DNA of 64,000 nt from Candidatus Iainarchaeum sp. (GTDB taxonomy: Archaea; Iainarchaeota; Iainarchaeia; Iainarchaeales; JAGVWC01), in contig JAGVWC010000010.1 in NCBI GenBank assembly GCA_018304465.1, forward strand, positions 224,670 through 288,669. Reading direction: 5' to 3'. The notes under the pieces are model-generated. The model searched no databases and was not told the DNA's origin. It worked only from the letters and a program-made list of their open reading frames with translations. Below, one piece after another: positions 17,244 to 34,177 of this stretch. How positions within the stretch are numbered: the stretch's first letter is position 1; every line of letters starts with the position of its first letter. Position numbers and translations under genes: made by a program.

Positions 17244-17353
17244 CCGCCATTTTCCCAAAAGAATAAAAATCAACTTTTTGGTTGAACAAAAATCAACCGC
17301 ACATATATTACTTCGCGGCGCGGCAATATGTATAACGGATAGGCCTATCCAAC

Positions 17354-17689: not shown

Positions 17690-17976
17690 AACCATCGGAA
17701 AACACCTGGAACCTCTGCACGTACTGCCACAAACTCGAACTGGGAAACGAAACCCGCTTCAAACAAAAACACGCCCCCTGCAAAATAGATCCCAACCCCA
17801 CGCTTGCCAACCGGTTTCTAACACTCAAACACTACATCGAAGAACAACTCGAACTACAACCCGGACAAATCGAAATCAACCGCACGAAAAACCACATCAA
17901 AATGAGTTTTTTATTTGAAAATCCACCAAAAAAACAAACCGCCCCTTCGGCAGTTGACGAAAAAAACATCCGATAA
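17686..17976 (+). CDS. Hypothetical protein (CxxC-containing)
   Basis: MKPSENTWNLCTYCH..., translationally coupled to upstream gene. Confidence 0.55.
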   Translation: MKPSENTWNLCTYCHKLELGNETRFKQKHAPCKIDPNPTLANRFLTLKHYIEEQLELQPGQIEINRTKNHIKMSFLFENPPKKQTAPSAVDEKNIR

Positions 17977-18004
17977 ACCACGCGTATTCCCCCAAAGAAT
18001 ACAT

Positions 18005-19843
18005 ATGAAAAATGCGCTCGAATGGACTCTGATCATCGGACTAATCGCAGTAAGCGGAACCATTCTGTTATTTCCATCCGCTAATTCCGAAGCAACGATT
18101 TCACCCACCCTGTTTCAACTGAACACTACCACCGATCAAAACACCCTAACCACACTGGACACTTTCGGCACCAATATACGATTTGACATGTTGGTGACCG
18201 ACCAATTTTTTTCGCCACTGTCCGGAGTACTCATTGGAATCATTCCCAGCTACAACCCCACCAAAATCGGATCCGTAATATCTACTCCCCAAGGAAACGC
18301 ATCCTACACCGACACCCATGTTCCGCCCGGAGTTCACAAATACCGTTTGATTGGATCCAAAGTCGGATATCAGAACGGCTACATGGAAAAAAACATAGTG
18401 ATTCCATCAGGACATCTAGTGAATGTAGAAGTTTTTGATTCAGCGGGGAATCCAGTTCCGGATGCTTTTTTAGTGGTGAATGGAGAAGAAAAAAAGCGAA
18501 CCAATCCAAATGGAAAAGTTAACTTGAATTTTTTTTCGGGAACGTATGTGTTGCAAGCAAAAACAAATAACGGATATATCTGTGAATCCAAAACAATCAC
18601 AATTACAACCCCACAATCCGTCCGGTTCTCTTGTCCGGTGGGAAACCTGGTTGTTCGAGTGTTTTCCCCCGATTACGCTCCAATCGCAAATGCATATATT
18701 CAACTTGATCAACAACCATCCCAACTCACCAATGCCAGCGGAGCCCATTTTTTTAAAAACCAAGCATTTGGAAACCACCTCGTCACTATTTTTTTAAAAA
18801 TCAAAGAAACTCCCGAAACCCAACCCAAAGAATTTTTTACCCAAACAACAGTAAACCTTTCAGAGGATCTTGTGCTAAAAGAATTCCAACTCGCCCCCAA
18901 TTCAATTCAAGTTTTGGATACTTCAACCGAAATGTTGGTTCTATCCGTTGATTCGAATCAATCAAAAAGACTACCCAACGACATCTCCACTGAAAATGCA
19001 ATAGTCATCAAAGGAAAAATGAACATCAACCAATCCCAAGAAACCCCCATAACAGATCCTCTGCACTCCGACACCTGCTACAAAAAGTATCTATTAACCG
19101 GAGAATGGCCCACCACTGAATGCTCCGCTACCAACACAATTTGGATCGGAACCGATTCGATAACTCAAACCATCAACACAAACCCCTTCGCCTACACCTG
19201 CGGAGACCAAAAATGCAGTCAAAATTTGGGAGTTATTCTTACACAGTATATTGTTCCTCCACTAAAAGAATTTTTTACTGGTACAGATGGAGGAAGGTAT
19301 TTTCGCATTTCCTATACTGAAAAAGGAAAGGGTCAAGATCTTGAAGCCTGTTTAAACAAATTGGGAATAGCGAAAGACGAAATTATTCAGCACATCAACA
19401 ACAAGATTCTTATCCCCCATACCCCGATAGAGAAATACAATCAGCATATTGGGCAATATAGAGAGAATGGGTTAGATTGCAGTGTCTTCTATGAATCGGT
19501 TGCATTTAAAGAAAGCGGCGGTACAAAAGGTTGTGAAAAAAGTTGCGAACCGCCAGAAAAGTATATCCGAAATCCCCCAATAAGTTATCCGTCTTTTATT
19601 CCAACAGAGCATTTAGACGATTGGGTTGAAAGAATAATTAGACATAACAACGTCGAAAATGGGTGGCCTACATTAGATAGGTTTAAACCTTTTTCAGACA
19701 TTGGAATAATTATCGTGGAAGGAGCAGGGGTAGCTGCGGGAGCACTAATACTATGGGAAGCTACAAAACCTGTTCGATGCTTACTTGCCGCTTTTTTAGC
19801 TCCTGAAACAATTGGAGGAAGTGTAGTATTATGCGTAAGTTGA
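18005..19843 (+). CDS. Putative polymorphic toxin A: N-terminal TM/signal, shared N-module, 2 carboxypeptidase-regulatory/Ig-like repeats, Cys-rich variable C-region
   Basis: Hydrophobic N-terminus; 18176-18403 is 40/76 aa identical to the N-module of 32084..34177; VEVFDSAGNPVPDA...TNPNG and VRVF...PIANA...TNASG repeats; hydrophobic C-terminus. Confidence 0.65.
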   Translation: MKNALEWTLIIGLIAVSGTILLFPSANSEATISPTLFQLNTTTDQNTLTTLDTFGTNIRFDMLVTDQFFSPLSGVLIGIIPSYNPTKIGSVISTPQGNASYTDTHVPPGVHKYRLIGSKVGYQNGYMEKNIVIPSGHLVNVEVFDSAGNPVPDAFLVVNGEEKKRTNPNGKVNLNFFSGTYVLQAKTNNGYICESKTITITTPQSVRFSCPVGNLVVRVFSPDYAPIANAYIQLDQQPSQLTNASGAHFFKNQAFGNHLVTIFLKIKETPETQPKEFFTQTTVNLSEDLVLKEFQLAPNSIQVLDTSTEMLVLSVDSNQSKRLPNDISTENAIVIKGKMNINQSQETPITDPLHSDTCYKKYLLTGEWPTTECSATNTIWIGTDSITQTINTNPFAYTCGDQKCSQNLGVILTQYIVPPLKEFFTGTDGGRYFRISYTEKGKGQDLEACLNKLGIAKDEIIQHINNKILIPHTPIEKYNQHIGQYRENGLDCSVFYESVAFKESGGTKGCEKSCEPPEKYIRNPPISYPSFIPTEHLDDWVERIIRHNNVENGWPTLDRFKPFSDIGIIIVEGAGVAAGALILWEATKPVRCLLAAFLAPETIGGSVVLCVS

Positions 19844-19848
19844 CAAAC

Positions 19849-20373
19849 ATGGAAAAAAAGTTCGATGTCAGCTTAGTTCTGGCTAACACTAAAAATGCCA
19901 ATAACCTAAAACTTCTGTATGAAATATTGTGTTTCTGTAAAGAAATCGGTGCAGTAACCCTTGAAATAGAGTTTGTGAACCCAGATATCTTTACGGGAAA
20001 AGATTTTGTTAATCCAGTTTTTTTCGATCGCCTAAAGGTGTGCGTTAGCCTGCCAGGAGAACGGGTTCGATACGAAAAACCAAAAAGAAAAGAGGAAATA
20101 GGCCATGAAAAATTGCATTATCTTAAAGCTAATTTTGACTCTCTTTTTATTGAGTGGTATAAAGAAAATAGCCTAATGACTTTTAACGTATTTAATTTGC
20201 AATTATTTGACAAAAACGGATCCGTTGTTGCAGACTTTACCGACGATCAGCTTAGTATTCACATATATTCTTTGAGTAAACAAGAGTTAGAAAAAGTAAG
20301 AAAAATTGCGAAAAAATATTCCGTAGATAGTACTACTGACACGGCTAAAACCTTAATAAAAAAATGGCACTAG
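19849..20373 (+). CDS. Putative immunity protein for toxin A
   Basis: Starts 5 nt after toxin A stop (alternative overlapping ATG 19831); AT-rich, soluble, aromatic-rich, about 174 aa. Confidence 0.5.
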   Translation: MEKKFDVSLVLANTKNANNLKLLYEILCFCKEIGAVTLEIEFVNPDIFTGKDFVNPVFFDRLKVCVSLPGERVRYEKPKRKEEIGHEKLHYLKANFDSLFIEWYKENSLMTFNVFNLQLFDKNGSVVADFTDDQLSIHIYSLSKQELEKVRKIAKKYSVDSTTDTAKTLIKKWH

Positions 20374-20502
20374 GGACTTCGCCCATATGACCCTAAGTAA
20401 GCGTGTGTTCCACCAAACCCGAATGCTCCAAATGCGTATCCGTATAATGCATTTCATCGCAATTACCACAAGCATAATAAGGCTGACATTGGGGATCACA
20501 AG

Positions 20503-21081
20503 ATGCAAAAAGGGATCGAATACGAATATTTTGCCGACGAAAATGAAGGCAGCATACGGTTTTTGTTTCAGGGCACAGGCAGACTTGACGCACTTGAAGT
20601 CGTGAAACGTATCGTAGGAAAAAAAAGTGCAGAAATTCCCGCAAACCAATACCTCGGAAAAGAATTCATATATGAAGGACAACGACTGGTGCTGTCGTTT
20701 GCAAAAAACGGTGTGAACATAAACATCAAAAGAGTTGGTGGCCAAGTATTTGGTGAAATGGATGGCCTCCTGCTAAAAGACAATACCGTCGTAATACTAG
20801 AATCAAAAACAGGCACCGTGGCCAAAATAGTGGAAGACTTGAGCACGCAGCTACCAAGAAACATTAATGCCATCAACAACCTTTCTCAAAAAACAACAAC
20901 AGAAGCGCTTATCGCGATCCCAAAAGGCACAACCGAAGAAATAAAAGCGCTTGCAATAAACAATTCCAATCTCAACGCGCTCATCAACCAAGGAAAAATA
21001 CATTTCATTGAAATAACGCAGACAAGCGATGAACTGCTTGCAACTGCGAATACGGTAAAAGACCTTATAGGTGGCGGGTAG
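20503..21081 (+). CDS. Orphan toxin C-terminal cassette, PD-(D/E)xK nuclease
   Basis: FGEMDGLLLKDNTVVILESKTG (D...ExK); frame is open from 20401; no signal peptide or N-module. Confidence 0.6.
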   Translation: MQKGIEYEYFADENEGSIRFLFQGTGRLDALEVVKRIVGKKSAEIPANQYLGKEFIYEGQRLVLSFAKNGVNINIKRVGGQVFGEMDGLLLKDNTVVILESKTGTVAKIVEDLSTQLPRNINAINNLSQKTTTEALIAIPKGTTEEIKALAINNSNLNALINQGKIHFIEITQTSDELLATANTVKDLIGGG

Positions 21082-21786
21082 ATGAAGGACGATACGATTA
21101 GAGAAGAATACCTAAAACTAAATAAAGACCATGAATCGTTAAAAGAGCAAAAAAGGCCCGGAAATGCGCATTTGGGGGGATTTTATGTACGATTAGATCC
21201 GAATCGAGGAACCTCTTTATCTGGCTCAGTAAGCGAGTTCGGTGTTTGCGATTTTAGTTATGAGGAAAGAAAATTTTTTTCAGAAGAAGATCGGCAAAAA
21301 AAAGTATCCAAATTAATTGAAACCTTCGGATACGCAATCAGTCTTATTTTTCTGAGTTTTGGAGAGAGTGATATCGTTATTTGGCTACAACTCCCACTTG
21401 GCAGAAAAGAAATCCAAGAAATCCTGGATTTTCTACCTTCGACAGGGACATTCAAAAAATACGAAACCCCAATCATACACACCTTGGCAAATGACGAGCA
21501 AGTACAAAAAGCACGCAACGATTTTTATCAAAAACTTTCTGAATGTGTCGACGGCCAGCAGACCGAACATTGGCGTTTTTCGAAAGACATCGAACAAGAA
21601 AAAAAAACCGCGTTTCAAATAACCATAAACGAAGTAAAAAACATTCAAATAGGCAAAACAACAGGACACAACATTACGCTGGAATTTATGAAAAACTGCT
21701 CTACTTTTAAAAAATACATTTTCCCCCTTGAAGAAAAAAGTTTCAAAAAAACAATTGAAAGGATTCGAAATGCGCAGGTAAAATAA
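21082..21786 (+). CDS. Putative immunity protein for the orphan nuclease
   Basis: TAG-ATG abutting the nuclease ORF; soluble; no family recognised. Confidence 0.5.
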   Translation: MKDDTIREEYLKLNKDHESLKEQKRPGNAHLGGFYVRLDPNRGTSLSGSVSEFGVCDFSYEERKFFSEEDRQKKVSKLIETFGYAISLIFLSFGESDIVIWLQLPLGRKEIQEILDFLPSTGTFKKYETPIIHTLANDEQVQKARNDFYQKLSECVDGQQTEHWRFSKDIEQEKKTAFQITINEVKNIQIGKTTGHNITLEFMKNCSTFKKYIFPLEEKSFKKTIERIRNAQVK

Positions 21787-21865
21787 CGGGTAAATTCATC
21801 AGGATACACAAAATATAAAATTTGAGTATTTAGAGATAAAAACCGCAACTAGTGGAGGGGGATAC

Positions 21866-22129
21866 ATGAGTTGGATCACAGTATTATTCGGCATCGGGGG
21901 AATCGCATTGGTAGGATATGGAGTTTATGTACTTTACCGGGTCCCAAAGCAGCTGCGCGAAGGAAAAACGCGTCTTACTGGAAAACTCATTACTATGGGT
22001 ACCCCAGATATTGAAAAGGAAAAAAATCGGACAACTTTTTGGGAAGTTACGCTGTGGAATATTATTCGAGGGATTCTCTCGATTATATTTGGGGCGTTTC
22101 TCGTTCTCAGTATGCTTTCAAATCTTTGA
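21866..22129 (+). CDS. Small two-TM membrane protein
   Basis: GGAGG RBS; two hydrophobic segments. Confidence 0.7.
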   Translation: MSWITVLFGIGGIALVGYGVYVLYRVPKQLREGKTRLTGKLITMGTPDIEKEKNRTTFWEVTLWNIIRGILSIIFGAFLVLSMLSNL

Positions 22130-22164
22130 AATAATAGTTAACCTCAAAGTATGAGGGCCTTGGA

Positions 22165-23019
22165 TCACGGAAAAGAATTTGCATGAACTGACTTTGGAAA
22201 TAAGTTGATTCCTTCGGTTCGCAGTTGTTCCGCCAAAATAGGATTCCGTGTAATAACCATTTTGATCGAGACGTTTTCCATGTAAAGCGAATAGACTTTT
22301 GCCATGTCGAACTGTTCCATTGATTTTGTTTTTTCAAACAACGCATTTAATCGTTGTTTAAACTCCGTTGGATAAAAAATTTGAGCCACATAATCCCCTT
22401 CAATCACCAAATCACCGTCCGCCGGATAAGTGACCTGATGAATGGATTGCTTGCCCATCTTTTGGGTAAACGTATTCCCAAACTGGTCCAACACCCCAGC
22501 ACCATGATACAACCCATAATAGGGAACTTGAAAAATTTTTTTCACTTGCTCCAAATCGCTTGGATCCAAACCCACCGGAAGCCAAGGATGACCCAACAGG
22601 CAAACACGAGATTTTTTATCCGGATTAGGAAATTGATCATTAAAGACCCAAATAACAAAACGAATTAACTCAACCATACTATGGAATTCCAAATTCAGCA
22701 CCTCTTTTTGCAACCAATCGGAAGGCAAAGAATAATTGGAATAGGATTGTAGACGCGCACTAAACGCCTTTACATTTAATATCCACTCAGCACTTAACGA
22801 AAATTTCGACCCGTTTTTGACAACGACCCGCTCACCCTCCAAACTATGAAGCATTTTATGAACCGCTTGGTAGGAAGCTGAAATGGCATATTCTTTTTTG
22901 ATATCCGAAAATATTTCCTTCAAACTCAAAGGATGCCGAACGCTAAGTAAACTAATAATCGCGTCTTTTGTTGAAAGTGTTTTTTTCCCAAAACCTGGCA
23001 GAACAATCGAAAGAGCCAT
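22165..23019 (-). CDS. Winged-helix regulator, paralog 1
   Basis: STKDAIISLL...PLSLKEI...SYQAVHKML..L; HPWLP; RNPILAEQL. Confidence 0.8.
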   Translation of the reverse strand: MALSIVLPGFGKKTLSTKDAIISLLSVRHPLSLKEIFSDIKKEYAISASYQAVHKMLHSLEGERVVVKNGSKFSLSAEWILNVKAFSARLQSYSNYSLPSDWLQKEVLNLEFHSMVELIRFVIWVFNDQFPNPDKKSRVCLLGHPWLPVGLDPSDLEQVKKIFQVPYYGLYHGAGVLDQFGNTFTQKMGKQSIHQVTYPADGDLVIEGDYVAQIFYPTEFKQRLNALFEKTKSMEQFDMAKVYSLYMENVSIKMVITRNPILAEQLRTEGINLFPKSVHANSFP

Positions 23020-23113
23020 CCAAATCACTACGTATAGAACATACAAAACATCGATAACCGGATTTATAAACATAACCAAGTAAAAAGTAGATAAAACTCA
23101 GATTCTGATTTAC

Positions 23114-24121
23114 GTGGCCAAAAAAACCGTAAAAGATGCCTATGAAAGCATCTTCAAAAAAAGCGTCAAAGCCAGCGGAATATCCGTCAAAGGACTTGAT
23201 TTTAACCAAGAAGTCACCTTGGAAAAACTGATTAACGCGCTTGGAACCAGCGGATTCCAAGCCACGCATTTAAGCCGCGCCATCGAAATCGTCAAAAAAA
23301 TGCGCAAAGACAAAGTAACGATTTTCTTAGGATATACCTCCAACCAAGTATCCAGCGGAAACCGCGACATCATCCGCTATCTGGTTCAACACAAACTCGT
23401 GGACTGCTTGGTCAGCACCGCCGGCGGAATCGAAGAAGACTTCATCAAAACCCACGCTCCGTTTTTCATTTCCGATTTTCGACTCGACGGCGCGAAACTA
23501 CGCGAAAAAGGAATCAACCGCATCGGAAACCTGCTCGCACCCAACGAGCGCTACATCTGGTTCGAAAAATTCTTCCAACCGATCCTCCAAGAACTGCTTG
23601 ACGAACAACTCAACACCGGACACATTTTTTCCCCCAGCGAAATCATCGACAAAATGGGAGAAAAAATCAACCACGAAGAATCAATTTATTACTGGGCCCA
23701 CCAAAACAAAATCCCGGTTTTCTCTCCAGCATTCATGGACGGAGCCATCGGCGACAACTGCTACTTTTTCAACTACAACAAACAAAAAAAATTATTCATC
23801 GACCAAATCGCAGACCATCACCGCCTGATCGAAAAAACACTCGACTCCAAAGAAACCGGACTCATCATACTAGGCGCCGGCCTCGTCAAACACACCCTGC
23901 TAAACGCCAACATGTACCGCGAAGGCGCCAAATACACCGTCTACATGAACACCTCCAGCGAATACGACGGAAGCGACAGCGGCGCCGAACCCGAAGAAGC
24001 CAAAAGCTGGGGCAAAATCGCAGCAGACGCCAACACGGTAAAAGTAGTTGGGGACACGACAGTGTTGTTTCCCTTAGTGGTAACAGTTGCATTAAGGCAC
24101 TTTCAAAAAGCAAAAAAATAG
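23114..24121 (+). CDS. dys: Deoxyhypusine synthase
   Basis: GFQAT, FLGYTSN, TAGGIEED, NRIGN, DGSDSGA, EAKSWGKI. Confidence 0.97.
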   Translation: MAKKTVKDAYESIFKKSVKASGISVKGLDFNQEVTLEKLINALGTSGFQATHLSRAIEIVKKMRKDKVTIFLGYTSNQVSSGNRDIIRYLVQHKLVDCLVSTAGGIEEDFIKTHAPFFISDFRLDGAKLREKGINRIGNLLAPNERYIWFEKFFQPILQELLDEQLNTGHIFSPSEIIDKMGEKINHEESIYYWAHQNKIPVFSPAFMDGAIGDNCYFFNYNKQKKLFIDQIADHHRLIEKTLDSKETGLIILGAGLVKHTLLNANMYREGAKYTVYMNTSSEYDGSDSGAEPEEAKSWGKIAADANTVKVVGDTTVLFPLVVTVALRHFQKAKK

Positions 24122-24135
24122 TGTAGGATAGTTAT

Positions 24136-24828
24136 TCAAAAATCCAGTAAACCACGTATATCAGTTTTATTTTTGACTATTGGCCATTTTCTTTGTTCAG
24201 CAATTTCAGAAAGTTTTTTGTCGGGGTTCACAGTAACTGGATGTCCCACATGTTCTAAAACAGGAAGATCTTGTGAGGTATCTCCAAACCCAAACGAAGA
24301 TTCTATGTCAATATTATACTTTTTTATCAAAGCATAGAACAAAGTTTCTTTATTTTCACGAATTACTAGATTCGTTTTGACATTCCCCGAATAAACACCA
24401 TCAACAATCTCGCATTCTGTCCCATATAAATCATCAAAGCCCAAGTATTTCAATTGTTTTATTACTTCGATAGGGGAACCGCTCATTGCAAGGACCAAAT
24501 AACCTTTTTGTTTCATTAGTTTTACAAGTTGTTTTGAGTGTTCAAAAATATTTTTTTTGTATATAGCCATGAATGCTGCCCCCAATTTTTCAACTTTTTG
24601 GTGATCGCATCCTTTTAACCCTCTCGCAAACACTTGCGGGAGTTCGGTTGCAACTTCAGCAGCACTTTTTGTTCCTTTAATATATTCTGATAAAAGAAGT
24701 TGTATTTTTTTATTGGATTCGGAGCCTATGCACCCTTGTTGGTCCAAATACTTTGGAAATTCACAAATGATAAAACCTTTAACAAGTACACCATCAATGT
24801 CAAATATTGCTGCTTTTTGCGCATGCAT
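24136..24828 (-). CDS. HAD-IB family phosphatase
   Basis: FDIDGVL, MSGSP, K, FGDTSQDLP, VNPD..L. Confidence 0.9.
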   Translation of the reverse strand: MHAQKAAIFDIDGVLVKGFIICEFPKYLDQQGCIGSESNKKIQLLLSEYIKGTKSAAEVATELPQVFARGLKGCDHQKVEKLGAAFMAIYKKNIFEHSKQLVKLMKQKGYLVLAMSGSPIEVIKQLKYLGFDDLYGTECEIVDGVYSGNVKTNLVIRENKETLFYALIKKYNIDIESSFGFGDTSQDLPVLEHVGHPVTVNPDKKLSEIAEQRKWPIVKNKTDIRGLLDF

Positions 24829-24853
24829 ACAAAAGTTCTCCTGTAAAATAATG

Positions 24854-25633: not shown

Positions 25634-25636
25634 TGT

Positions 25637-26785
25637 TTACTCAGCCCCTTCAAATAATAGCGCAAGATGACCTTTGGATACATCGACTTTAGGCTTTTTT
25701 AAGATAATCTCTTTCCCATACACTCTAGAACATAGACCAGATAAAAATCCGCCGATCATTAAGAAGTCAATTTCTTTATAAAATTTAGTCCAAGGAAAAT
25801 AATTAATGATAACTTTTAATTTTTCTCCGCTTGAAAGAACTAAAACTTCGCCCCAGCCCAAAGCCGAAAGTAACTCCATTACTTCAAGCAATCTTCTTTT
25901 ATCAATTTCAGGAAATAACTCTTGACCTATCCGAAACGCACAATCAAAAAGGATTTTTTTCATTTTTTCATTTTTCATTCCTTTTTCTAGCAGGTACATC
26001 CCGCTGACTTCCATTAAGAAAAAACGCTCCTTTTGTTTGTATACAATGATGCCTTCAGAATATGAAAACAATTTGGCGTTAAGATATGATTCAAAGGATT
26101 TTTTATATTGAATGTCCACTTCAGTATTAAAACTTCGATAAGTTGAAGCGTCCTCTAATAGATCATCTACTTGAGTTTCACTATATACTTGTTCTTTGAA
26201 TTGCTTTGAAAGAACATCGACAGGAGCACAGGTCACCTTACAAAACTGATCAGACCCTTTGAACAAACTATCATACATATGACCTTCAATTTTTATGTCT
26301 TGCAGTATCCACGCGATAATTCCTGCTGCACCGGCAGTAGCAAGAAAAAAATCATACCCTAACTTTCTACACACAACAAAATTTTTCAGTTCATATTTCA
26401 CAGTCTTATTTTTTACATCAGTCTCTTGCGAGATATTGCTCGCATAGGTGCCTTCGACAAATTTACTCGCAATCATCACCCAATCTTTTACTGCCTCGCC
26501 AGGGTGATCTTTAATATTTTCAAACCGCCCATTCAATGCAAAGCTATACCCAAACCGTTTGCCGATGGAATATAATGTTTGCTCACCTTCAGCCCCAAAC
26601 TCAGTAACTAATTGCTTTTCAAGAGCAACAAAAAAACTTTCAGGGAGCAGAAGTTGTCGCAAGTTTACAGTGGTTTTTCCAGAGATTTTAAAATCTACAA
26701 AGCCAGGCCTATCAAAAATCAATGCCCGGGGGATTACAAAGCGTTTAACGTACAATCTAACAACGCTATCTTTTACATCCACCAT
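25637..26785 (-). CDS. Tandem V4R-like sensor domain protein
   Basis: TLYSIGKRFG...AGAAGIIAWI...C; ILFDCAFRIG...LSALGWGEV...GGFLSGLCS. Confidence 0.7.
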   Translation of the reverse strand: MVDVKDSVVRLYVKRFVIPRALIFDRPGFVDFKISGKTTVNLRQLLLPESFFVALEKQLVTEFGAEGEQTLYSIGKRFGYSFALNGRFENIKDHPGEAVKDWVMIASKFVEGTYASNISQETDVKNKTVKYELKNFVVCRKLGYDFFLATAGAAGIIAWILQDIKIEGHMYDSLFKGSDQFCKVTCAPVDVLSKQFKEQVYSETQVDDLLEDASTYRSFNTEVDIQYKKSFESYLNAKLFSYSEGIIVYKQKERFFLMEVSGMYLLEKGMKNEKMKKILFDCAFRIGQELFPEIDKRRLLEVMELLSALGWGEVLVLSSGEKLKVIINYFPWTKFYKEIDFLMIGGFLSGLCSRVYGKEIILKKPKVDVSKGHLALLFEGAE

Positions 26786-26787
26786 GT

Positions 26788-27534
26788 TTATCCGCCTGCT
26801 TCGATAACAATGCCTTTTGCAGTAATATTATATGTTCGTGGACCGCCACGAATATCAGTTTTTCGCATTTTTCGAACTTCCAAGTTTCTATTCAAACTAT
26901 CCCCAATCGAAACATGTTTGAGTAAAACTACACCGTCACATAAAAATTCACTAATTGTGTCCCGGCTCAAAAAATTTGTGGATTCAGGTAACTCAGAAAT
27001 GATTATTGATGTTGCTTTTTGATTTTTTAGTGCTTCAAGCATATCCACTATTGCTTTTCGAGTAGCAACTTCAGGCCCAAGCTGGAAAGAGAATTGGCTT
27101 TTTTGCATTCCCATTTTTTCTAAGATCTCAATATATGCAATCGTTTCTGCATAAATCCCATATGTCGAAATAGAATCCAAGACAATTCTATCCGGTTTAA
27201 ACTCTTGGATTAATGCCTTAATTTCTTGTAATACCGCAGAGAAAATCATTTTGTTTGGAGTGTAAGTTACAACTTTCAATTTTTTTTCTTTTTCAAGTTT
27301 AAGCAAATCCCACCCCAATTCGTTTGATTGATCAATAATATCTTCTCTAATCTGTTCAAAACTAATCAAAAGCCCACGTTCATTATACTGCTTCACTCCA
27401 TTTACAAGGTATTGAGTAGCGAAGATGGTCTTTCCAGATCCTGTTAACCCTGACAGCAATACCAGATTCCCTTTTGGAAATCCCCCATTAATGAGTTCAT
27501 CAAAACCAGATATCCCTGTTTTAACTCGTAACAT
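26788..27534 (-). CDS. KaiC/RAD55-like RecA-superfamily ATPase
   Basis: TGISGFDEL, GLTGSGKT, SFEQ, IVLDSIS, SEFLCDGV, VRKMR. Confidence 0.92.
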   Translation of the reverse strand: MLRVKTGISGFDELINGGFPKGNLVLLSGLTGSGKTIFATQYLVNGVKQYNERGLLISFEQIREDIIDQSNELGWDLLKLEKEKKLKVVTYTPNKMIFSAVLQEIKALIQEFKPDRIVLDSISTYGIYAETIAYIEILEKMGMQKSQFSFQLGPEVATRKAIVDMLEALKNQKATSIIISELPESTNFLSRDTISEFLCDGVVLLKHVSIGDSLNRNLEVRKMRKTDIRGGPRTYNITAKGIVIEAGG

Positions 27535-27626
27535 TCAACATCAGACTCGGCCGCGCTTTAAGATGTATTTAATGGCTTTAAACACCTATTTAAACAATGC
27601 TGTTAATCAAAAATCAGTTTATCACG

Positions 27627-28385
27627 TTAGAGCGCCAAATCATCTATCTTAATTGTAATTCCTTTTGGCGACATCTCGTACCGTAGCGAGCCTTTTTCGT
27701 GATCAGTGTACCGCATTTTTCGGATTCGAACACTGCGAAACACCGAAGAACCGACACCCAAATAACTTAACACAATCACGCCATCCGCAATAAACTCGGA
27801 CACGCCATCCGCACTGAGTCGCGCGGCTTCTTCAAACAATTCCGACGTCAACATCGTGGTAACTCCGTAGGCTCGAAGCGACGACAACAACCGATACAAA
27901 ATCTGTTTCGCGATCAATTGTTCGGTTCGCGGAATCGGAGAAACCGTTTCGGCAATCTGAACCATTGAAAACGCATCGTGTTCCGCCAAACCCCCGACAA
28001 TCATGGCATCCGTCAAGGTAGACATGGAATCCACCACAATGCGTTTGGGTTTGAATTCTTTTAGAATCAGATCAAGACGTTTGAGAAAATTATCCCCGCC
28101 GGTAATATCATAAAAAACAACCTTGATCAAGCCCCGCTTGATCAAACTTTCCAAATCCCAACCAAAACCGAGACCTTGCTTGATCAATTCGGATTCTGTT
28201 TGCTCCGTAGAAATGTATACTCCGCGCTCATTGTTTTGCGCGCCGTGGACCAAAAATTGCATGCAAAAAGTCGATTTTCCGGTTCCGGCGCCGCCTGAAA
28301 TCAAAACCATGTTGCCTTCGGGAAGACCCCCTTGCAACGCTTTATCCAATCCTTCGATTCCAGTTTTGGTTCGTGAAACAGCCAC
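27627..28385 (-). CDS. KaiC/RAD55-like RecA-superfamily ATPase
   Basis: TGIEGLD, GGAGTGKS, STEQ, IVVDSMS, SEFIADGV, IRKMR; GTG start after AGGTG RBS. Confidence 0.92.
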   Translation of the reverse strand: MAVSRTKTGIEGLDKALQGGLPEGNMVLISGGAGTGKSTFCMQFLVHGAQNNERGVYISTEQTESELIKQGLGFGWDLESLIKRGLIKVVFYDITGGDNFLKRLDLILKEFKPKRIVVDSMSTLTDAMIVGGLAEHDAFSMVQIAETVSPIPRTEQLIAKQILYRLLSSLRAYGVTTMLTSELFEEAARLSADGVSEFIADGVIVLSYLGVGSSVFRSVRIRKMRYTDHEKGSLRYEMSPKGITIKIDDLAL

Positions 28386-28488
28386 GAAAACACACCTAAT
28401 AGCCCATTGGCTGACAAGATAACACCTTCGAGGTTTAAAAACCTTATTGGTAGGCGGATTTGAAGAAAAAGAAAGAATTACTAGCATG

Positions 28489-29334
28489 TCAGGAATGGGC
28501 GTAAAGAGAATTTATCTGGTCAAACGCCATCTTTGCCATTTGCGGATTTCGATAAACCCGGACTTTAATGGAGACACTAAGTGGCTTTTTAGCTAAAAAT
28601 CGGGCGTAATGCAAAAAAACATCCAACAAGTTATTCGTCTTATCATATAGTGATTCTAGCCAGCGTCTGGAGTCCGAAGAAAAATCCACTTCCCAGTAAT
28701 ATGAACCAATTACTCCGAAATCTTTTTCAAAATTTCCGGAAGGATTGATCCGCACGGAAAAACCTGCATCAGAATACATTTTTTGCGCCCAACGATTAAA
28801 GTTAGTGTCTCGCGTAATCACCACGCAAATCTGTCCAGGAGTTGCATCAGACATTTTTTTTAACAAAGAAAAATCAGAAAAACGAAACGACAAAGGAAAC
28901 CACGCATTTCGAATCAACGCCATTGTCTTGTCGCCTTTTCGAACTGATTTTCCAAGTGTGACGAAAATTTTTGCCATTCCAACGCAAAACTCACTTATAT
29001 CAGAGAATTCAAGAATCGTATCAGAGCCAAAAGAGATGGGAACACGCCTTGATTTAGAGCGTCGGAACTCCGAGTCTAACTCGCGTGAAAAATTTTTCAA
29101 GCTCAAAACCCACTGGGGATTCAACTCGAATTTTTTTTGTTTTGAAACCAGAACATCTTCCGCTTCAAGAGAAACCAACATTTTGTGCACGGCTTGGTAC
29201 GACACGCGATCTACTAGCGTCCAATCCATTTTTTCAAAAACGCCTTTTGCAGAAAGCGGGCCCTGCTGGCCAAGAATCAAAATAATTTGATCACGTGTGG
29301 AAGACTTTCCTAAAAGAATTGGCAATACCCCCAT
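28489..29334 (-). CDS. Winged-helix regulator, paralog 2
   Basis: STRDQIILIL...PLSAK...SYQAVHKML; NAWFPL; RNPQMA. Confidence 0.8.
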   Translation of the reverse strand: MGVLPILLGKSSTRDQIILILGQQGPLSAKGVFEKMDWTLVDRVSYQAVHKMLVSLEAEDVLVSKQKKFELNPQWVLSLKNFSRELDSEFRRSKSRRVPISFGSDTILEFSDISEFCVGMAKIFVTLGKSVRKGDKTMALIRNAWFPLSFRFSDFSLLKKMSDATPGQICVVITRDTNFNRWAQKMYSDAGFSVRINPSGNFEKDFGVIGSYYWEVDFSSDSRRWLESLYDKTNNLLDVFLHYARFLAKKPLSVSIKVRVYRNPQMAKMAFDQINSLYAHS

Positions 29335-29387
29335 AGATAACCCACTACATAACAAGTATTTTAGAACTAACGGATAAAAGAGTACCT

Positions 29388-30239
29388 ATGCAAGAATTCT
29401 GGTCCATTCCGGCGGCTCACGGCAACACCACTGTCAAAGACTGGACCATCCGGATTCTCACCCAAGAATGGCCGCTGTCGTTAAAACAAATTACGGAGCG
29501 CGTCCAACAGCAATCCGGAAAAACCGTTTCTCAACAAGCCGTGTTCAAAACGCTTCAAGATTTGGTTCGACAAAAAGTCGTTGAAAAACACGACAAGAGT
29601 TACGCATTAAACAAAGAATGGATCACGCACCTCGCGAAATCCGTTCAAGATCTCCAGACCACGTATGAAAACCACGCTGGCCAATTGCCCGCACTCGGAA
29701 AACTTGACACCAAAACCGTAATCGAATTTCATGATCCAAGCGCCGTCGCGGTCACCGTCGCCCAGATTCTGGCCTCGCGCGTACTCACCCAAGGAAAACC
29801 GGAACCGTTTTATGGAATCAAACGACACGGCTTGTGGCCGCTTCGATTCAGCTTTTCCGACTTCGAACTCTTAAAAGAAATGACCAAATCCATTCCGTGT
29901 TATTGCGCCGTAATCGGAAATGACCCCTTTGACCGATGGGTGGTTGAACAATACCTTAAAGGCGGATTCAAAAAATCCAAAACCGGCGCCAAAGCCGAAT
30001 TCAAAGAATGGGACATCATGGCCCACGGAGAATACGTACTGACCATTCAATACGCCAAAGAAACCGAACAAGCCATCGAATACCTGTTCAAACAAATCAA
30101 CAACCTAAGCGAACTATTCGAAAAATTCAGCCAAGAAGAACTGTCCAAATTCAAATTCCAAGCAACGTTAACAATCGAACGAAACCCGGACCTCGCACGG
30201 CTCATCAAAGAAAAATGCATGAAAATATTGGAAGAGTAA
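29388..30239 (+). CDS. Winged-helix regulator, paralog 3 (divergent from paralog 2)
   Basis: TVKDWTIRIL..EWPLSLKQI...SQQAVFKTL; HGLWPL; RNPDLA. Confidence 0.8.
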   Translation: MQEFWSIPAAHGNTTVKDWTIRILTQEWPLSLKQITERVQQQSGKTVSQQAVFKTLQDLVRQKVVEKHDKSYALNKEWITHLAKSVQDLQTTYENHAGQLPALGKLDTKTVIEFHDPSAVAVTVAQILASRVLTQGKPEPFYGIKRHGLWPLRFSFSDFELLKEMTKSIPCYCAVIGNDPFDRWVVEQYLKGGFKKSKTGAKAEFKEWDIMAHGEYVLTIQYAKETEQAIEYLFKQINNLSELFEKFSQEELSKFKFQATLTIERNPDLARLIKEKCMKILEE

Positions 30240-30306
30240 AAACGAATACTGAAAGAAGAAGTACATACAAGTTCACAAAACAAAGAGATTAGCTAGTAGT
30301 TACCCG

Positions 30307-31464
30307 CTATTGGTTTTGGTATAGGTCTTTGCAGGATTGGACTGCTTCTTGGGTACTGAGTTCGTCACAGAGCGCAGTGTTTTGAGCGTTGATAATGATT
30401 GCGATGATGCATAAATCAGGATTTTCGAGTTGTTTGCATATGGCGGGGTCCATCCGGGTAATCGCAATTTTTTTCATGCAACGTTCTTTTTCGGTTGTGG
30501 CTTTGCATGCTTCCAGGTCGTCTTTGGCGACTGCAACGTCCGAGAAACAAGTCTCTTCTTGATTGAGGCCTTTGCATAAGTTGGCGTCTTTTTTTGCGAC
30601 GGCTACGCGCGAGATGCAAATATCACGAAACATTGCGAGTTCGGGATTTTTCGGGAGGGTTTCGCATATTTTTTCATCTTTTGCTTGTTCTGCTTGTGCA
30701 GTCGTGGTTTGTATGGTGGACCACAGGCTGTCCAACGTTGTTTGGTATCCTTTTTGGGCGGTATCCAAGCACACTTGTTTTTGAGTCGGGGTCGTAAAAT
30801 TTTCGCATATCGTGGCGTCTTTTGTTTTTTCGACTACCGCAAACATGCAATTGATGCGAAAGCCGTCTAGCCGAGCCTTGCATAGGTCGTCTTGGCAGGC
30901 GGTCGGATGTTTTTCCAAAGTGACTTCTTTGCATCCTTCGAGTGTTCCAGTCTGACCGCTGACGATCGCAATGCATTGAAGTTTATAGACTTCTGATATG
31001 ATTTTGTTGCAGATTTCGATATTTTGCGTTCTGTTCGCATCTTCCAATAACGCATCGGTAACCCCGCTGCTACAATACGAACCAGACCCAAGTTTTTCGC
31101 AGACGCTATAATCCCGAAGGGTAACTGCCACTCCTTGAATGCAAGTTTGTATACCGCTTTGAGAGGTTAAGGCATTACACATCTTCAAATCGCCTCGTTT
31201 CCCTCCGATCTCAGCCAAACACTGGTCTTTTCGAATCGAAACAAAAAAAGAATCCGTGAGCAAATCGCAGATTTGCATGTTGTCTGCTTCTACGGCAACG
31301 TTTGTAATGCAAATGGACCGATTAAGCTCTTGATCAATTGTATTGCACTCCGCCAAAGCGGATTCAACATCTGAATTTAACGCGGTGTTGCTCTGCCCTA
31401 GTGGCGGGCTAGTACATCCAACGAATAAGAGGGCGATGATCAGGAGTAACAACATACGATTCAT
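30307..31464 (-). CDS. Cysteine-repeat lipoprotein
   Basis: LLFVGC lipobox; about 11 repeats of C-x(3-4)-A-x(4-6)-(I/L/M)C; ATGA overlap with upstream gene. Confidence 0.8.
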   Translation of the reverse strand: MNRMLLLLIIALLFVGCTSPPLGQSNTALNSDVESALAECNTIDQELNRSICITNVAVEADNMQICDLLTDSFFVSIRKDQCLAEIGGKRGDLKMCNALTSQSGIQTCIQGVAVTLRDYSVCEKLGSGSYCSSGVTDALLEDANRTQNIEICNKIISEVYKLQCIAIVSGQTGTLEGCKEVTLEKHPTACQDDLCKARLDGFRINCMFAVVEKTKDATICENFTTPTQKQVCLDTAQKGYQTTLDSLWSTIQTTTAQAEQAKDEKICETLPKNPELAMFRDICISRVAVAKKDANLCKGLNQEETCFSDVAVAKDDLEACKATTEKERCMKKIAITRMDPAICKQLENPDLCIIAIIINAQNTALCDELSTQEAVQSCKDLYQNQ

Positions 31465-32084
31465 TTTTCCACATCCTTTTCAGGTAGTTCTTTTCCTACT
31501 GCTTGCGCGATTTTTTCTTGATCTATTGGATTCTCGGGCTGAAACATATCCCGATAATTTGGCTGAAACATATTCTTGTACAACTGAAGCAGAATCCCTT
31601 TATGGAATGGGACTATGCTATAAACACCTGCTTGTTTGACTTTATCCACATTTATTTTCTTTTTTTCTTTTTCTCCGAAATAAATGATCGGGTGAATATA
31701 ATCGTAAGGCCGCCACTTATCGAGTTCGAGTTCATGATCTCCGATTCCCCACTCCGGATTTGCTTCTTCAATCACGGTTTTGATTATTTCTAAAAAATAC
31801 TTGAAGGTTTCTTCCGGATTATCTAGAACTATGCCCGTTTTTTGAGTAAAAACACTGATGCTTGTGCTTCGCTTACCGGAACGTACATTAAACTGTGTTT
31901 CTTTTTTATTAATCTTCAAAGTATATCCGACGTACCCGTACTGGCGTTCATAAAGGCCGGGAAGCGGTTCTTCAAGAGTCACTGTAAAATTTTTCAACCG
32001 CAATGCTTGCTCAATTTTTTTTAGGATTGGTTCTTTTTCGATGGTGGTCGGAACAAAAGTCATAAAGTCATAGGTATATCCCAT
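31461..32084 (-). CDS. Putative immunity protein for toxin B
   Basis: TAATG overlap with toxin B stop; soluble, about 207 aa. Confidence 0.6.
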   Translation of the reverse strand: MGYTYDFMTFVPTTIEKEPILKKIEQALRLKNFTVTLEEPLPGLYERQYGYVGYTLKINKKETQFNVRSGKRSTSISVFTQKTGIVLDNPEETFKYFLEIIKTVIEEANPEWGIGDHELELDKWRPYDYIHPIIYFGEKEKKKINVDKVKQAGVYSIVPFHKGILLQLYKNMFQPNYRDMFQPENPIDQEKIAQAVGKELPEKDVEK

Positions 32085-34177
32085 TAGATGTCCCCCCATA
32101 GTCTTACTTTTACGCCAATATTCTCAAACTCGATTAATAATTTGGAATCGATAGGTTGTTTGGTTATAAGCCACGCCTCGTCTGCTATGCTTGGATTGTT
32201 TGCTACGTAGGAAACTAATTCTTGTAATTGTGCTTTTACCTCATCTATTTCAGGCGTTTTCATCGCAATGAAGTTTTCGTTTTTTACTTCGGCTAGAACT
32301 TTTTTGTTTGTCGTTGTTTCAAGATAAATGTCTGCTTTTTTGTTTGCGTACTCGAATTCTTTGATTGTGTTTCCGTTTGTTTTTAGTTTTTCAGCGGCTT
32401 CGAGTTGGGCTTTGTATCCTTTAACACTATCTTGAGATATACTAGACCCAATATCTCCTGCCACAGTATCAATTCCTTTGGTATTTTTAAAAGTATCAAT
32501 TCGAATTAGCGTATCTGATGCTAAACTTTCTTTTTGCCCTATCTCTGCGATCCCGGTTATTCCTCGATCACTCCATTCGAGTGTGCTTGTTCCGGCGATT
32601 CGGCCGACTTTTTCTCCGATTTCTTCGCTGTAATTTGCGATTACAGTTTGGTATCCTCTTTTGTTCAGTAATTTTGAAAGGATGGTGTCAGAGGCAGCTC
32701 CTAATCGTGTAGCGATTCCTTCGACTTTTTCGCTGAAAACGATGCGTAAGGGTTCGGGAATGCTCTCGAAGAATTGTGTGAGTTTTTCGGCATCGTTTCC
32801 GAGCGCTTTGGTGATGCGCCCCAATCCAGTGGCTGCTTTTTCGCCTGCCTCAATAATGGGTTTAGTCCATTCGAGTCTTTGAAGAAGGGTAGCGGTTTGG
32901 TAGCCAAATTTGTTTCCAATAATTCGGATCAGGTCGGTAAATTTGTCGATTTTTTGAACGATTTTAAGGGCTTTGATGGCGTCTGCAATTTTTCCAACCA
33001 AAACCGCTTGTTCGATAACATAACCGCCAATGAATCCTTGGACGTACCCAACTTGAAATGCCCGATATTCGAGTCTCTGAGTGACTGGGTTGGCAGGGTT
33101 TCTGGTTGTTCCGACTTTGTAAATGTCTATGACCGCATTGCCGAGTGCGTCGCCGATATGTTCCAACGCTTGGGGGAAGATGCGAACAATGTCAATGACG
33201 CCGCTTGCAATTTGAGTAACTTGGTCTTGGCGGTAGATAAAGCTTAGGGCGCCGTTTAATACTTGTTGGGCAAAGTCCAAATCGTCTTTGGCGCCTTTGA
33301 AAGTGCCGTCCACGAATCCTAAAAACAAGCCCGTACAATTGGAGGCAATGGAGTAAATGCGTAAGGTTTCTTTGTTGGAATCGTATAAAAGTATGACGAC
33401 TTGAGTTCCTTTGGAAAAAGATTCGAGTTCGCTATTGTTTTCGAACACTTGTTTTAACGGAATCGATTCCGATTGAATTTGAACATCCAATGGTACAAAA
33501 CTCGTGAGCAATTCTTGGGAATTCAGACTGTTGGCAGAGATCGGATTAGACAGCAATTCGAGTTGTTCGGAGTTGAGTTGTTCAAGATTATCTTGAATTT
33601 GTTGCTTTTCGAGCGGATTCACGCCCCCCAATAACCAGGTCATTGGATTTCCGCACGAAGTGTAAAAATCGTCAAAGACCATGGTAGCCGGATTATCATA
33701 ATAGTTACCCGGATCCGTTCCAAACAACAACTCTTTTTCGTAAACAAATCCATCACAATCCGCATCATCCAAACACCCTCCGATCACAACGGTTTTTTCC
33801 AAATAACCGTTTTTGTACCCCACTTTGGACGCAATGAACCGATACGAATGAGCGCCGACCGGAGGCGCCACATCAGAATACAACGCGGTTCCATCACTAC
33901 CCGTCACCACAGAACCAAACCGATTGGGGTCGTAACTTGGAATCACCCCCACTAAGACATCCGAAAGCGGAATACCCACCGTATTCGTTGTTTGGATCGA
34001 AAAACGAATCGTTGGATCCCGGGAAGCACCATCGAATTCAAGCGCATAATCCACGGTAAACGGCACTGCTTCGGCGTTAAATTTTTCCTCTGAAAAAGAT
34101 TGAAAAACAACGAAACTGACGGCTATCAACAAAAAAAGAAAACTCGCCACAAATGCTTTTTTCAAGACGCTGTCCAC
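32084..34177 (-). CDS. Putative polymorphic toxin B: TM anchor, shared N-module, TSP3-like Ca motif, helical linker, C-terminal PD-(D/E)xK nuclease
   Basis: N-terminal TM; shared module 33782-34009; DDADCDG...E...GTDP; GYVQGFIGG hydrophobic stretch; GYKAQ...ADIYL....VLAEVKN. Confidence 0.75.
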   Translation of the reverse strand: MDSVLKKAFVASFLFLLIAVSFVVFQSFSEEKFNAEAVPFTVDYALEFDGASRDPTIRFSIQTTNTVGIPLSDVLVGVIPSYDPNRFGSVVTGSDGTALYSDVAPPVGAHSYRFIASKVGYKNGYLEKTVVIGGCLDDADCDGFVYEKELLFGTDPGNYYDNPATMVFDDFYTSCGNPMTWLLGGVNPLEKQQIQDNLEQLNSEQLELLSNPISANSLNSQELLTSFVPLDVQIQSESIPLKQVFENNSELESFSKGTQVVILLYDSNKETLRIYSIASNCTGLFLGFVDGTFKGAKDDLDFAQQVLNGALSFIYRQDQVTQIASGVIDIVRIFPQALEHIGDALGNAVIDIYKVGTTRNPANPVTQRLEYRAFQVGYVQGFIGGYVIEQAVLVGKIADAIKALKIVQKIDKFTDLIRIIGNKFGYQTATLLQRLEWTKPIIEAGEKAATGLGRITKALGNDAEKLTQFFESIPEPLRIVFSEKVEGIATRLGAASDTILSKLLNKRGYQTVIANYSEEIGEKVGRIAGTSTLEWSDRGITGIAEIGQKESLASDTLIRIDTFKNTKGIDTVAGDIGSSISQDSVKGYKAQLEAAEKLKTNGNTIKEFEYANKKADIYLETTTNKKVLAEVKNENFIAMKTPEIDEVKAQLQELVSYVANNPSIADEAWLITKQPIDSKLLIEFENIGVKVRLWGDI

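Follow-up and report, generated by a model that had tools for sequence, protein, structure and literature searches.

Stalk proteins with interchangeable C-terminal ends and type-specific neighbouring genes in a small-genome archaeon: a possible polymorphic-toxin-like system

Makarova et al. reportedly predicted, in 2019, polymorphic toxin systems for many archaea. Those that depend on Sec export and carry a stalk are described as consisting of a signal, the stalk and a variable C-terminal cassette, with an immunity gene downstream and with extra cassettes or immunity arrays (Zhang et al. 2012, PMC3482391; Makarova et al. 2021, PMC8416519). In the sections of the 2012 study that bear on the subject, nucleases of the restriction-endonuclease fold are named as the commonest toxin type and polymorphic toxins are called rare in archaea (PMC3482391); the archaeal ones were experimentally uncharacterised as of 2021, as stated in the corresponding section of PMC8416519. 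Here we report on a 64,000-nucleotide (nt) stretch of the genome of Candidatus Iainarchaeum sp. (contig JAGVWC010000010.1, positions 224,670 to 288,669; referred to as the window), which encodes two large proteins, A and B, that resemble each other over one short module. We favour, with moderate confidence, the reading that A and B belong to a family of exported stalk proteins with interchangeable ends, which together with cognate partner genes form a polymorphic-toxin-like system. The comparative support is good, as homologies, modular variation of the C-termini, co-occurrence of partners and the predicted fold and motif of the B end were all found, and from these we infer toxicity, neutralisation and delivery.

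Two further archaeal families come close to this system by description. The SPEARE proteins of Nanohaloarchaeota are presented by Hamm et al. (2019, PMC6642349) as proteins of 3,300–8,500 amino acids (aa) in which a large adhesion part lies outside the cytoplasm; they contain laminin-G, serine protease and BC-toxin-like regions, a transmembrane (TM) segment towards the C-terminus and a restriction-endonuclease-like end, the nuclease part being the most conserved region. The end is placed in the cytoplasm by these authors and proposed to degrade imported DNA; a role in cell interaction is also proposed, and relatives are reported in Woesearchaeota, Aenigmarchaeota and Micrarchaeota (PMC6642349). 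The VARTIG modules of Thermococcales are loci headed by a large secreted immunoglobulin (Ig)-domain protein whose C-terminal region is shuffled and whose downstream genes vary, and they are explicitly likened to polymorphic toxin systems; according to the section concerned, hypervariability resides in an Ig domain, and neither a nuclease nor another toxin domain was found (Makarova et al. 2021, PMC8416519).

The family of A and B is like the stalked polymorphic toxins in five respects, namely secretion signal, stalk, variable C-terminal cassette, adjacent cognate gene and extra cassettes. We found an N-terminal hydrophobic helix (by hydropathy), a central stalk, unrelated ends, orphan cassettes and arrays and, at the level of gene order, a downstream gene that tracks the type of end for the A-type and B-type. 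It differs from them in that the stalk is built of CarboxypepD_reg/Big_1 sandwiches, in that the linker consists of either a TM plus Cys-rich segment or TSP3 plus a 400-aa core, and in that an RDD neighbour is frequent. In contrast to VARTIG, the family has at least one predicted nuclease-fold cassette, and the partners encoded downstream are soluble, not membrane-bound. The portion of PMC6393860 that deals with DPANN archaea and polymorphic toxins describes no such family; the survey tables of 2019 and 2021 may list it.

Protein A (18005–19843, + strand, 612 aa) starts with a hydrophobic helix (residues 5–23, Kyte-Doolittle (KD) score 2.0), followed by a beta-sandwich stalk, a Cys-rich C-terminal cassette and a hydrophobic tail. 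Protein B (32084–34177, − strand, 697 aa) likewise starts with a hydrophobic helix (residues 8–26, KD score 2.5), after which come the module, a core of about 410 aa and a predicted PD-(D/E)xK end. BLASTP of A against B gave one significant high-scoring segment pair (HSP), ungapped, between residues 58–133 of A and 57–132 of B (40/76 identical, E 8e-23); the next HSP had an E-value of 0.016, and neither the leader peptides nor anything after residue ~133 could be aligned. The helix, the shared 76-aa module and the divergence behind it are therefore as the initial annotation had them. The genes form two separate loci, not one. Some 12 kb of DNA separates them and carries housekeeping genes for deoxyhypusine synthase, a HAD hydrolase, PcrB and a pair of KaiC-like ATPases, which also mark the organism as archaeal.

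The proteins related to A and B proved to be mosaics. With regard to B, residues 53–545 are colinear with residues 601–1117 of P0010 (38% identity, E 6e-115), the last ~150 residues being unrelated, and residues 135–697, end included, align to residues 990–1564 of a 1564-aa protein from genome G128 (27%, E 2e-42); both alignments take in the B core. Residues 310–697 of B also align to the C-terminal end of a 2892-aa protein from G007, the body of which is made up of Ig-repeats (Big_13, Big_7, Glucodextran_B and CARDB) and lacks the module. The 560-aa B-type cassette (core plus nuclease) is thus also found on an Ig-repeat stalk. With regard to A, residues 54–309 are colinear with residues 472–727 of P0008 (35%) before the two diverge, and residues 58–611, end included, are colinear with a 1085-aa protein from G068 (38.5%) and a 1008-aa protein from G114 (37%). 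The relatives carry an N-terminal extension of 450–830 aa, rich in Cys motifs, which A and B lack; no remnant of it was found in the window by tblastn with nine full-length relatives, nor elsewhere in the genome. Judged from these alignments, A and B resemble 1000–1560-aa proteins that have been shortened at the N-terminus.

The last 220 residues of the 15 full-length proteins with stalk similarity to A or B were clustered (the fragment P0009 and 17 distant repeat proteins without a stalk HSP to A or B were left out). Six unrelated C-terminal types were obtained, with 4, 3, 3, 2, 2 and 1 members: type 1 (P0010, P0013, P0017 and P0029), type 2 (P0012, P0016 and P0031), type 3 or A-type (A and the G068 and G114 proteins), type 4 or B-type (B and the G128 protein, plus the G007 protein on another stalk), type 5 with ends like the small window protein P0005 (the G069 and G135 proteins) and type 6 (P0008). 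P0010 has a B-type core, yet its end is the one common to the TM-type bodies P0013, P0017 and P0029, which have another linker; this indicates that cassettes, linkers and stalks are freely combined. Stalk matches in Pfam across the family were to CarboxypepD_reg, Big_1, MG4 and SdrD_B, and hydropathy showed an N-terminal hydrophobic helix in 11 of 12 relatives, the exception being P0012, which had none at the threshold. The relatives' genomes in the collection measure 0.5–1.5 Mb, consistent with DPANN archaea, and the family occurs sporadically within one order of small-genome archaea. BLAST among the cassettes and partners of the window revealed no mutual similarity, a word-indexed protein search with residues 546–697 of B returned only B itself, and the family-wide alignment A5 was too divergent for a locus scan. 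Matches of 168–170 aa to the B end in G177 and G178 were dropped as coiled-coil, low-complexity sequence by eye.

The downstream genes follow the type of end. All three loci with a B-type end (B, G007 and G128) have a gene of ~210 aa within a few bases of the stop codon. In the window this is P0004 (31461–32099, −, 212 aa), a soluble protein and candidate immunity protein. The G007 and G128 partners share 34.5% identity across 84 residues (E 7e-9), while the pairwise match of P0004 is weak (E 0.08); with a leave-one-out profile of the other three members, P0004 came top of 445 open reading frames (ORFs) with E 2.8e-4, the next having E 0.3. Similarly, the A-type end is directly followed in all three of its loci by a gene like P0003 (19831–20373, +, 180 aa), the soluble partner of the A-type cassette and a second candidate immunity protein. 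The G068 copy encodes 189 aa (E 7e-5) and the G114 copy 159 aa (E 3e-10), and G068 has two further P0003 paralogues (397 aa, E 4e-16; 171 aa), giving three in tandem. As far as gene order indicates, the partners co-vary with the cassette for the A-type and B-type ends, and P0004 is most likely the cognate partner of the B cassette and a putative immunity protein. Complex prediction of the B end (alignment A3) with P0004 (alignment A2) gave a score of 0.00 in both runs, which speaks neither for nor against binding.

The arrangement of these genes points to coupled expression. The start of P0003 overlaps the end of A by 13 nt, with GGAGGA upstream, and P0004 has an in-frame ATG within a TAATG overlap at the stop of B. 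A third pair lies downstream of P0003, where the TAG stop of P0005 (20503–21081, +, 192 aa) abuts the ATG of P0006 (21082–21786, +, 234 aa). Within the last codons of the upstream genes of the window pairs there are G-rich runs like Shine-Dalgarno (SD) sequences, and together with the start/stop overlaps these indicate that cassette and partner genes would be translationally coupled. By hydropathy, none of the four small window proteins reaches the usual transmembrane score of 1.6, P0006 having one borderline stretch of 1.5. The initial description of a coupled, soluble gene behind each of A and B hence holds, as P0003 and P0004 are overlapping, co-oriented and free of hydrophobic segments. 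Several cassettes (those of P0005, G069, G135, P0010 and P0012) terminate in Gly-Gly(-Gly), and G-[DEY]-I closes the B-type. In the DNA of P0005, G069 and G135 the Gly codons are the G-rich SD-like runs, with the next ATG 0–3 nt past the stop, so that the diglycine tail is probably a by-product of translational coupling (tails and runs at 21070–21084 and 32084–32099 of the window, at ~4775–4795 of locus L035 and at ~7335–7350 of locus L036).

The end of B (residues 546–697; 32084–32542, −) is the cassette for which a biochemical activity can best be predicted. When it was aligned with the G128 and G007 ends (A3), all three sequences proved to share an invariant Asp, the motif KK..AE.K and, further along, a Gln. 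AlphaFold2 (AF2), run on this three-row alignment, gave a model with a predicted local distance difference test score (pLDDT) of 78.1 and a predicted TM-score (pTM) of 0.74, in which the elements are ordered alpha-beta-beta-beta-alpha-beta. Comparison of this model with 48,161 chains by VIA-align placed three PD-(D/E)xK proteins first, over 102–108 residues and with a root-mean-square deviation (rmsd) of 2.5–3.0: XisH-like 2okf (Z 10.1, 108 residues, rmsd 2.5), AF1548 (1y88; Z 9.8) and NucS (Z 9.1). Further neighbours were Cdn1, Card1 and Can2. These results support the assignment of the B end as a PD-(D/E)xK nuclease by fold and motif, predicted from a three-sequence alignment, in agreement with the D..ExK motif noticed at the outset. 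Toxins were also among the neighbours, namely the contact-dependent inhibition (CDI) toxin CdiA-CT (4g6v, Z 7.6), PA3907 (Z 7.4) and TseT (7dym, Z 7.2); the toxin-domain structures on which the B end superposes include 9oz0 (Z 7.4) and 4zqu (Z 6.5). The B end is like the CdiA-CT/CdiI and TseT/TsiT pairs in that it superposes on PD-(D/E)xK toxins and has a small adjacent gene, although the CdiA-CT and TseT toxins rank under the non-toxin proteins XisH-like, AF1548 and NucS (Z 9–10). It differs from these pairs in showing no sequence similarity to them, in lacking a type V or type VI secretion system context and in being archaeal. Searches of PDB sequences with the B end, P0005, P0010 and P0012 gave nothing meaningful.

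Ahead of the nuclease lies the B core (residues 133–545; 32543–33781, −), which opens with a Cys/Asp-rich, TSP3-like calcium-binding motif and continues with a conserved region, and which we regard as a candidate pre-toxin or translocation region. TSP3_bac matches occur at the equivalent place in the G128 and G007 proteins, and the core has no strong hydrophobic segment. None of the recognised processing or delivery signatures was found: A and B have no Rhs/YD, filamentous haemagglutinin (FHA), HINT, PrsW, LXG, PAAR or MafB-N domain in Pfam and NCBIfam scans, Pfam at E ≤ 1 showed no caspase, HINT, PrsW or PT processing family, and the delivery signatures of the CDI, Rhs, MafB and LXG systems (two-partner secretion, FHA repeats, YD repeats, DUF1020, LXG and PAAR) were all missing from the scans of A and B. 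The initial statement that no Rhs, LXG, PAAR or HINT motif is present was borne out by the Pfam scan at this threshold.

Protein P0005 is a free-standing, orphan copy of a cassette, as its residues 53–185 match the very ends of two full-length stalk proteins, those of G069 (980–1101 of 1104, E 3e-12) and G135 (1326–1456 of 1456, E 4e-9). P0006, being coupled to it, is a candidate cognate partner; no homologue was found at E < 0.003 in 215 genomes, and there were no family matches. The pair and its orphan nature agree with what was first noted for locus A, and the label nuclease is weakly supported by the sequence comparisons. The P0005-type ends show an E..D...ExK-like motif that is not invariant, and P0005 gave weak PADLOC matches to CARF_PDDEXK/Csx1 nuclease parts (E 0.002–0.012), so that a PD-(D/E)xK-type nuclease is possible. 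When the profile of the P0005-type ends (A4) was compared with that of the B-type ends (A3) by hhalign, the probability was 4.7%, a Pfam scan of four P0005-type sequences gave nothing relevant, and the AF2 model of P0005 was unreliable (pLDDT 52.8), its fold search being uninformative (best Z 4.7). An ESM Atlas lead to Tox-REase-7 (0.85) was not matched by the PF15649 profile.

Stray cassettes occur in other genomes as well. In G135, a 401-aa ORF (L036 7425–8630) holds a second copy of the P0005-type cassette (48% identical to the end of the main gene) plus a P0004-like domain, which shares 42.7% identity with the partner from G128 across 75 residues (E 2e-14). In G069, a 341-aa ORF joins a fragment of a stalk domain (52% identical to residues 610–703 of the G068 protein) to another end and is followed by a 211-aa gene, of which a homologue (42%) stands alone in G068. 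The orphan P0005, the second copy in G135, the G069 ORF and the lone G068 gene are arranged as orphan cassettes and stray immunity genes would be. The 401-aa ORF itself could be a toxin-immunity fusion, the result of a lost stop codon or an assembly error. The G135 locus continues with a large (>900 aa) subtilase with Ig/PKD domains (L036 9275–12001), seen at this one locus; the relevant section of PMC3482391 names proteases of the subtilisin type as processing enzymes of polymorphic toxins that depend on Sec.

According to the reading we favour, A and B would be N-terminally short, Sec-exported cell-surface stalk proteins. The order of the family would be a signal or anchor helix, mostly a Cys-rich extension of 450–600 aa, a CarboxypepD_reg/Big_1-like stalk, a linker (a TM helix plus Cys-rich segment, or TSP3 plus the 400-aa B core) and a swappable cassette. 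The B cassette would end in a PD-(D/E)xK nuclease, with the cytoplasmic P0004 as its cognate, most likely immunity, protein; the Cys-rich A cassette with its hydrophobic tail would be paired with the conserved partner P0003, and P0005/P0006 downstream of A would be an orphan cassette with its own partner. The cassettes would be toxic, with the end-piece facing outward and delivered to another cell, a competitor or a host, and the partners would neutralise them. As a bolder version, which we put forward tentatively, this may be a home-grown archaeal nuclease-toxin system of DPANN-like groundwater archaea, with Sec export, a beta-sandwich stalk for presentation, a new self-translocating linker for delivery (TM hairpin or TSP3 plus 400-aa core), help from RDD proteins, hosts or rival episymbionts as targets and two or more new immunity families (P0003-like and P0004-like). 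If the family does form a polymorphic-toxin-like system, small-genome, host-dependent archaea would possess a contact weapon or a tool for host manipulation, and the family would contribute new toxin, immunity and delivery modules, including a compact pair of 150 aa and 210 aa. It also raises the question, for the SPEARE model, of whether the nuclease end lies inside or outside the cell.

Several observations, given in this and the next two paragraphs, weigh against a toxin system. The ends are rare: the B-type end was found in two other credible genomes among 214 besides its own, and the A-type end gave two strong and three weak matches among 214 other genomes. A and B do not have the near-identical N-terminal regions expected of recently displaced cassettes; similarity is confined to the module and amounts to 53% in protein and 55% in DNA. 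No known toxin or immunity family was recognised in A, B, P0003, P0004 or P0006 by Pfam, NCBIfam and PADLOC. Foldseek of the B end against the PDB gave nothing at E ≤ 0.001 (best 4.6e-3), the top rows being mostly PD-(D/E)xK-fold nucleases (SfsA, EcoO109I, Can2, HindIII, Avs4 and NucS). Tox-REase-7 (PF15649), the signature of which is given in PMC3482391 as GxxxE, IxD, ExK and Q and resembles alignment A3 by eye, was not matched anywhere in the genome at E ≤ 10. The partners of the P0005-type ends are inconsistent, being P0006 in the window, a 391-aa K/E-rich protein in G069 and the 401-aa fused ORF in G135.

The A cassette (residues 310–612; 18932–19843, +) is also difficult to recognise as a toxin. 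Its identity to the corresponding ends in G068 and G114 is 48% and 42%. The A-type ends have conserved Cys pairs and two motifs with His, and they finish with one or two hydrophobic segments (two in A). Nothing similar to it was found in Pfam, and ESM Atlas scores were at most 0.82 with TM at most 0.32. Since a 668-aa protein from G031, unrelated in its other parts, also has the last third of the cassette plus the tail, the A cassette is suggested to be a membrane-proximal domain plus anchor rather than a toxin.

The third set of observations concerns topology. Eight of the 15 relatives have a strong TM helix (KD 1.96–2.58) between stalk and cassette, followed by a Cys-rich stretch. Read simply as a stop-transfer segment, this helix would leave the cassette in the cytoplasm, as in the published SPEARE topology. 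In these eight, 313–385 residues follow the first TM helix, and six of them have a second, weaker, Gly/Ala-rich hydrophobic segment (KD 1.2–1.5) 60–80 residues further on; read as a hairpin, the two segments would place the cassette outside. The hairpin reading agrees with the fact that the same type of end follows both kinds of linker. The proteins with a B core (B, P0010 and G128) have weak segments only (KD ≤ 1.6), and A and B themselves lack a TM ahead of the cassette. An RDD-family (PF06271) membrane protein is encoded a few genes downstream in six of the seven foreign loci (L022 2184–3719, L023 3857–4780, L013 4063–5463, L035 7552–8544, L036 8833–9270 and L037 4497–5000), that is, in G068, G114, G128, G069, G135 and L037 and not in G007, and no RDD gene was found in the window's own 92%-complete genome. 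The role of RDD proteins is described as not established in the section concerned of PMC12419801; the protein is a possible export or anchoring helper, without which the short forms A and B manage.

One alternative is modelled on SPEARE; according to it, the proteins serve host interaction or nutrient acquisition. An anchored adhesion stalk would carry a nuclease, cytoplasmic in the TM-type proteins and at the surface in B, that salvages nucleotides from host or imported nucleic acid, and the partners would be inhibitors or chaperones protecting the cell's own DNA. The combination of an extracellular part, a C-terminal TM and a restriction-endonuclease-like end fits the description in PMC6642349, the TM being there in the eight relatives and the nuclease fold in the B end, and a genome of 1.25 Mb (92% complete) is what is expected of a dependent lifestyle. 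Compared by description only, the two also share their occurrence in DPANN-type small archaea. We nevertheless regard this alternative as rather unlikely. The nuclease part is given as the most conserved region of SPEARE in that account, whereas the end is the most variable part here; orphan cassettes and tandem partner arrays are unexpected for a salvage enzyme; and A and B lack the TM. At the same descriptive level, the family differs in size (600–1,560 aa, one of 2,892), in its variable end and in its small cognate partner genes.

Plain surface or surface-layer (S-layer)-associated adhesins, with shuffled membrane-proximal domains, no toxin, and small neighbours that are passengers or assembly factors, are distinctly less probable still. 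The stalk domains CarboxypepD_reg, Big_1 and MG4 are generic, the A end has an anchor-like hydrophobic tail, residues 109–212 of A match the S-layer protein SlaB weakly in NCBIfam (E 1.6e-6, far under the cut-off), and the distant matches of the module are multi-repeat surface proteins. An adhesin would on the other hand hardly be expected to carry the predicted nuclease fold with its conserved D..ExK at a B-type tip, nor partners specific to the cassette in 3/3 and 3/3 loci across different families of the order, nor end-pieces that exist as free-standing copies.

A membrane-anchored defence resembling abortive infection, in which the stalk senses contact with a virus or foreign cell, the nuclease is the effector and the small partner holds it inactive, appears improbable. 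The structural neighbours of the B end do include Card1, Can2, Cdn1, the Avs4 nuclease and Hachiman HamA, P0005 has its weak CARF_PDDEXK matches, and the TM-type relatives could put the nuclease in the cytoplasm. The PD-(D/E)xK fold is, however, common to toxins and defence enzymes and does not discriminate between them, no sensor or signalling domain was recognised, and PADLOC found no match for A, B, P0003, P0004, P0006, P0008, P0010 or P0012.

Returning to the polymorphic-toxin-like system, the module that A and B share (18176–18403, +, in A; 33782–34009, −, in B) seems to have an ordinary place in it. The module DNA of A and B is identical at 125 of 228 positions (55%) and at 22 of 76 third codon positions (29%), which indicates that the similarity is old and has been kept by selection on the protein, with no recent recombination between the two. 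A and B are 53% identical to each other in the module and 25–31% identical to the modules of A's full-length relatives. In three close relatives the module is internal (P0008 475–553 of 1089, P0010 601–685 of 1268 and P0009 241–325 of a 420-aa fragment), in others it is preceded by 450–830 residues, and in more distant matches it is one of several repeated stretches within 480–1880-aa proteins. By itself the module of A or B has no Pfam match at E ≤ 10. In a Pfam scan that covered eight of the 25 other module matches, the best CarboxypepD_reg stretch coincided with the module in four (P0009 258–313, P0010 618–673, P0012 595–670 and P0013 547–621), reaching 32.5 bits in P0013 (cut-off 32.3) and staying under the cut-off in the other three. 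Right behind the module, residues 140–207 of A (18422–18625, +) match CarboxypepD_reg (PF13620) above the threshold (E 3.4e-8, 34.2 bits). From the internal position and the CarboxypepD_reg overlap we conclude that the module is most probably a divergent CarboxypepD_reg-like beta-sandwich stalk domain, not an N-terminal trafficking domain.

The module is also rare. In the organism's own 1.25-Mb genome, a search with it returned nothing besides A and B (E 1.4e-22) except a weak match at a third place, on contig C11 (E 0.005), and a profile of the two modules, run against 1.84 billion representative proteins, found 26 at E ≤ 0.001 and four at E ≤ 1e-10, one of which is A; B had no separate row. 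The module alignment A6 found no relatives in species-representative genomes; a metagenome scan with it gave two loci only, L037, which is that of P0008, and L038, which is unrelated. The idea of the initial annotation that the module serves trafficking or anchoring, as a novel N-terminal domain defining a new class of polymorphic toxins, is very improbable, since the position of the module ~30 residues past the helix, as the only part common to A and B, is outweighed by its internal place in relatives, its CarboxypepD_reg-like nature, the B cassette on the G007 stalk that lacks it and its occurrence in so few of the representative proteins. What is retained of the toxin-immunity proposal are the variable cassettes, the PD-(D/E)xK end of B, the cognate downstream partners and the orphan cassette, and what is given up is the module as the element that defines the system. 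The 420-aa P0009, a close relative of P0010, matches ribosomal protein L2 over its last ~35 residues (E 1.7e-7); it is probably an ORF at the end of a contig, either chimeric or wrongly called.

Other features of the window were noted around the two loci. A 385-aa secreted protein with many Cys-containing repeats and a lipobox-like N-terminus (..LFVGC) is encoded at 30307–31464 (−), overlapping the end of P0004 by 4 nt; its membership of the system is uncertain, no family match was found, and it had no homologue in the foreign loci examined. The ~760 bp 5' of A (17244–18004) hold only a 232-aa ORF (17278–17976), rich in R, K, P and H and without matches, which is probably spurious, and the region may contain the promoter of A or a degraded remnant. 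Three paralogues of ~285–305 aa flank both loci (22165–23079, −; 28489–29355, −; 29388–30239, +; 25–29% identity, E 1e-14 to 4e-31), and a fragment of the same family lies just 5' of the A-type gene in G114 (L023 28–249, E 3e-5); their N-terminal parts are winged-helix-like by eye, and they may be regulators of the loci.

The source assembly measures 1.25 Mb in 15 contigs, and the sequence is contained in 13 DNA sequencing runs from groundwater and soil metagenomes; no RNA run was among the runs listed as containing it, and the contigs of four runs gave only identical low-depth fragments. The KaiC-like ATPases between the loci are tandem, single-domain proteins (26788–27534, −, E 5e-56; 27627–28487, −, E 2e-54) that adjoin an unannotated 382-aa ORF (25637–26785). 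Further along, an 869-aa fusion of a family-2 glycosyltransferase and a B12-binding radical SAM protein (37786–40395, +) is followed by a second radical SAM protein (40359–41858).

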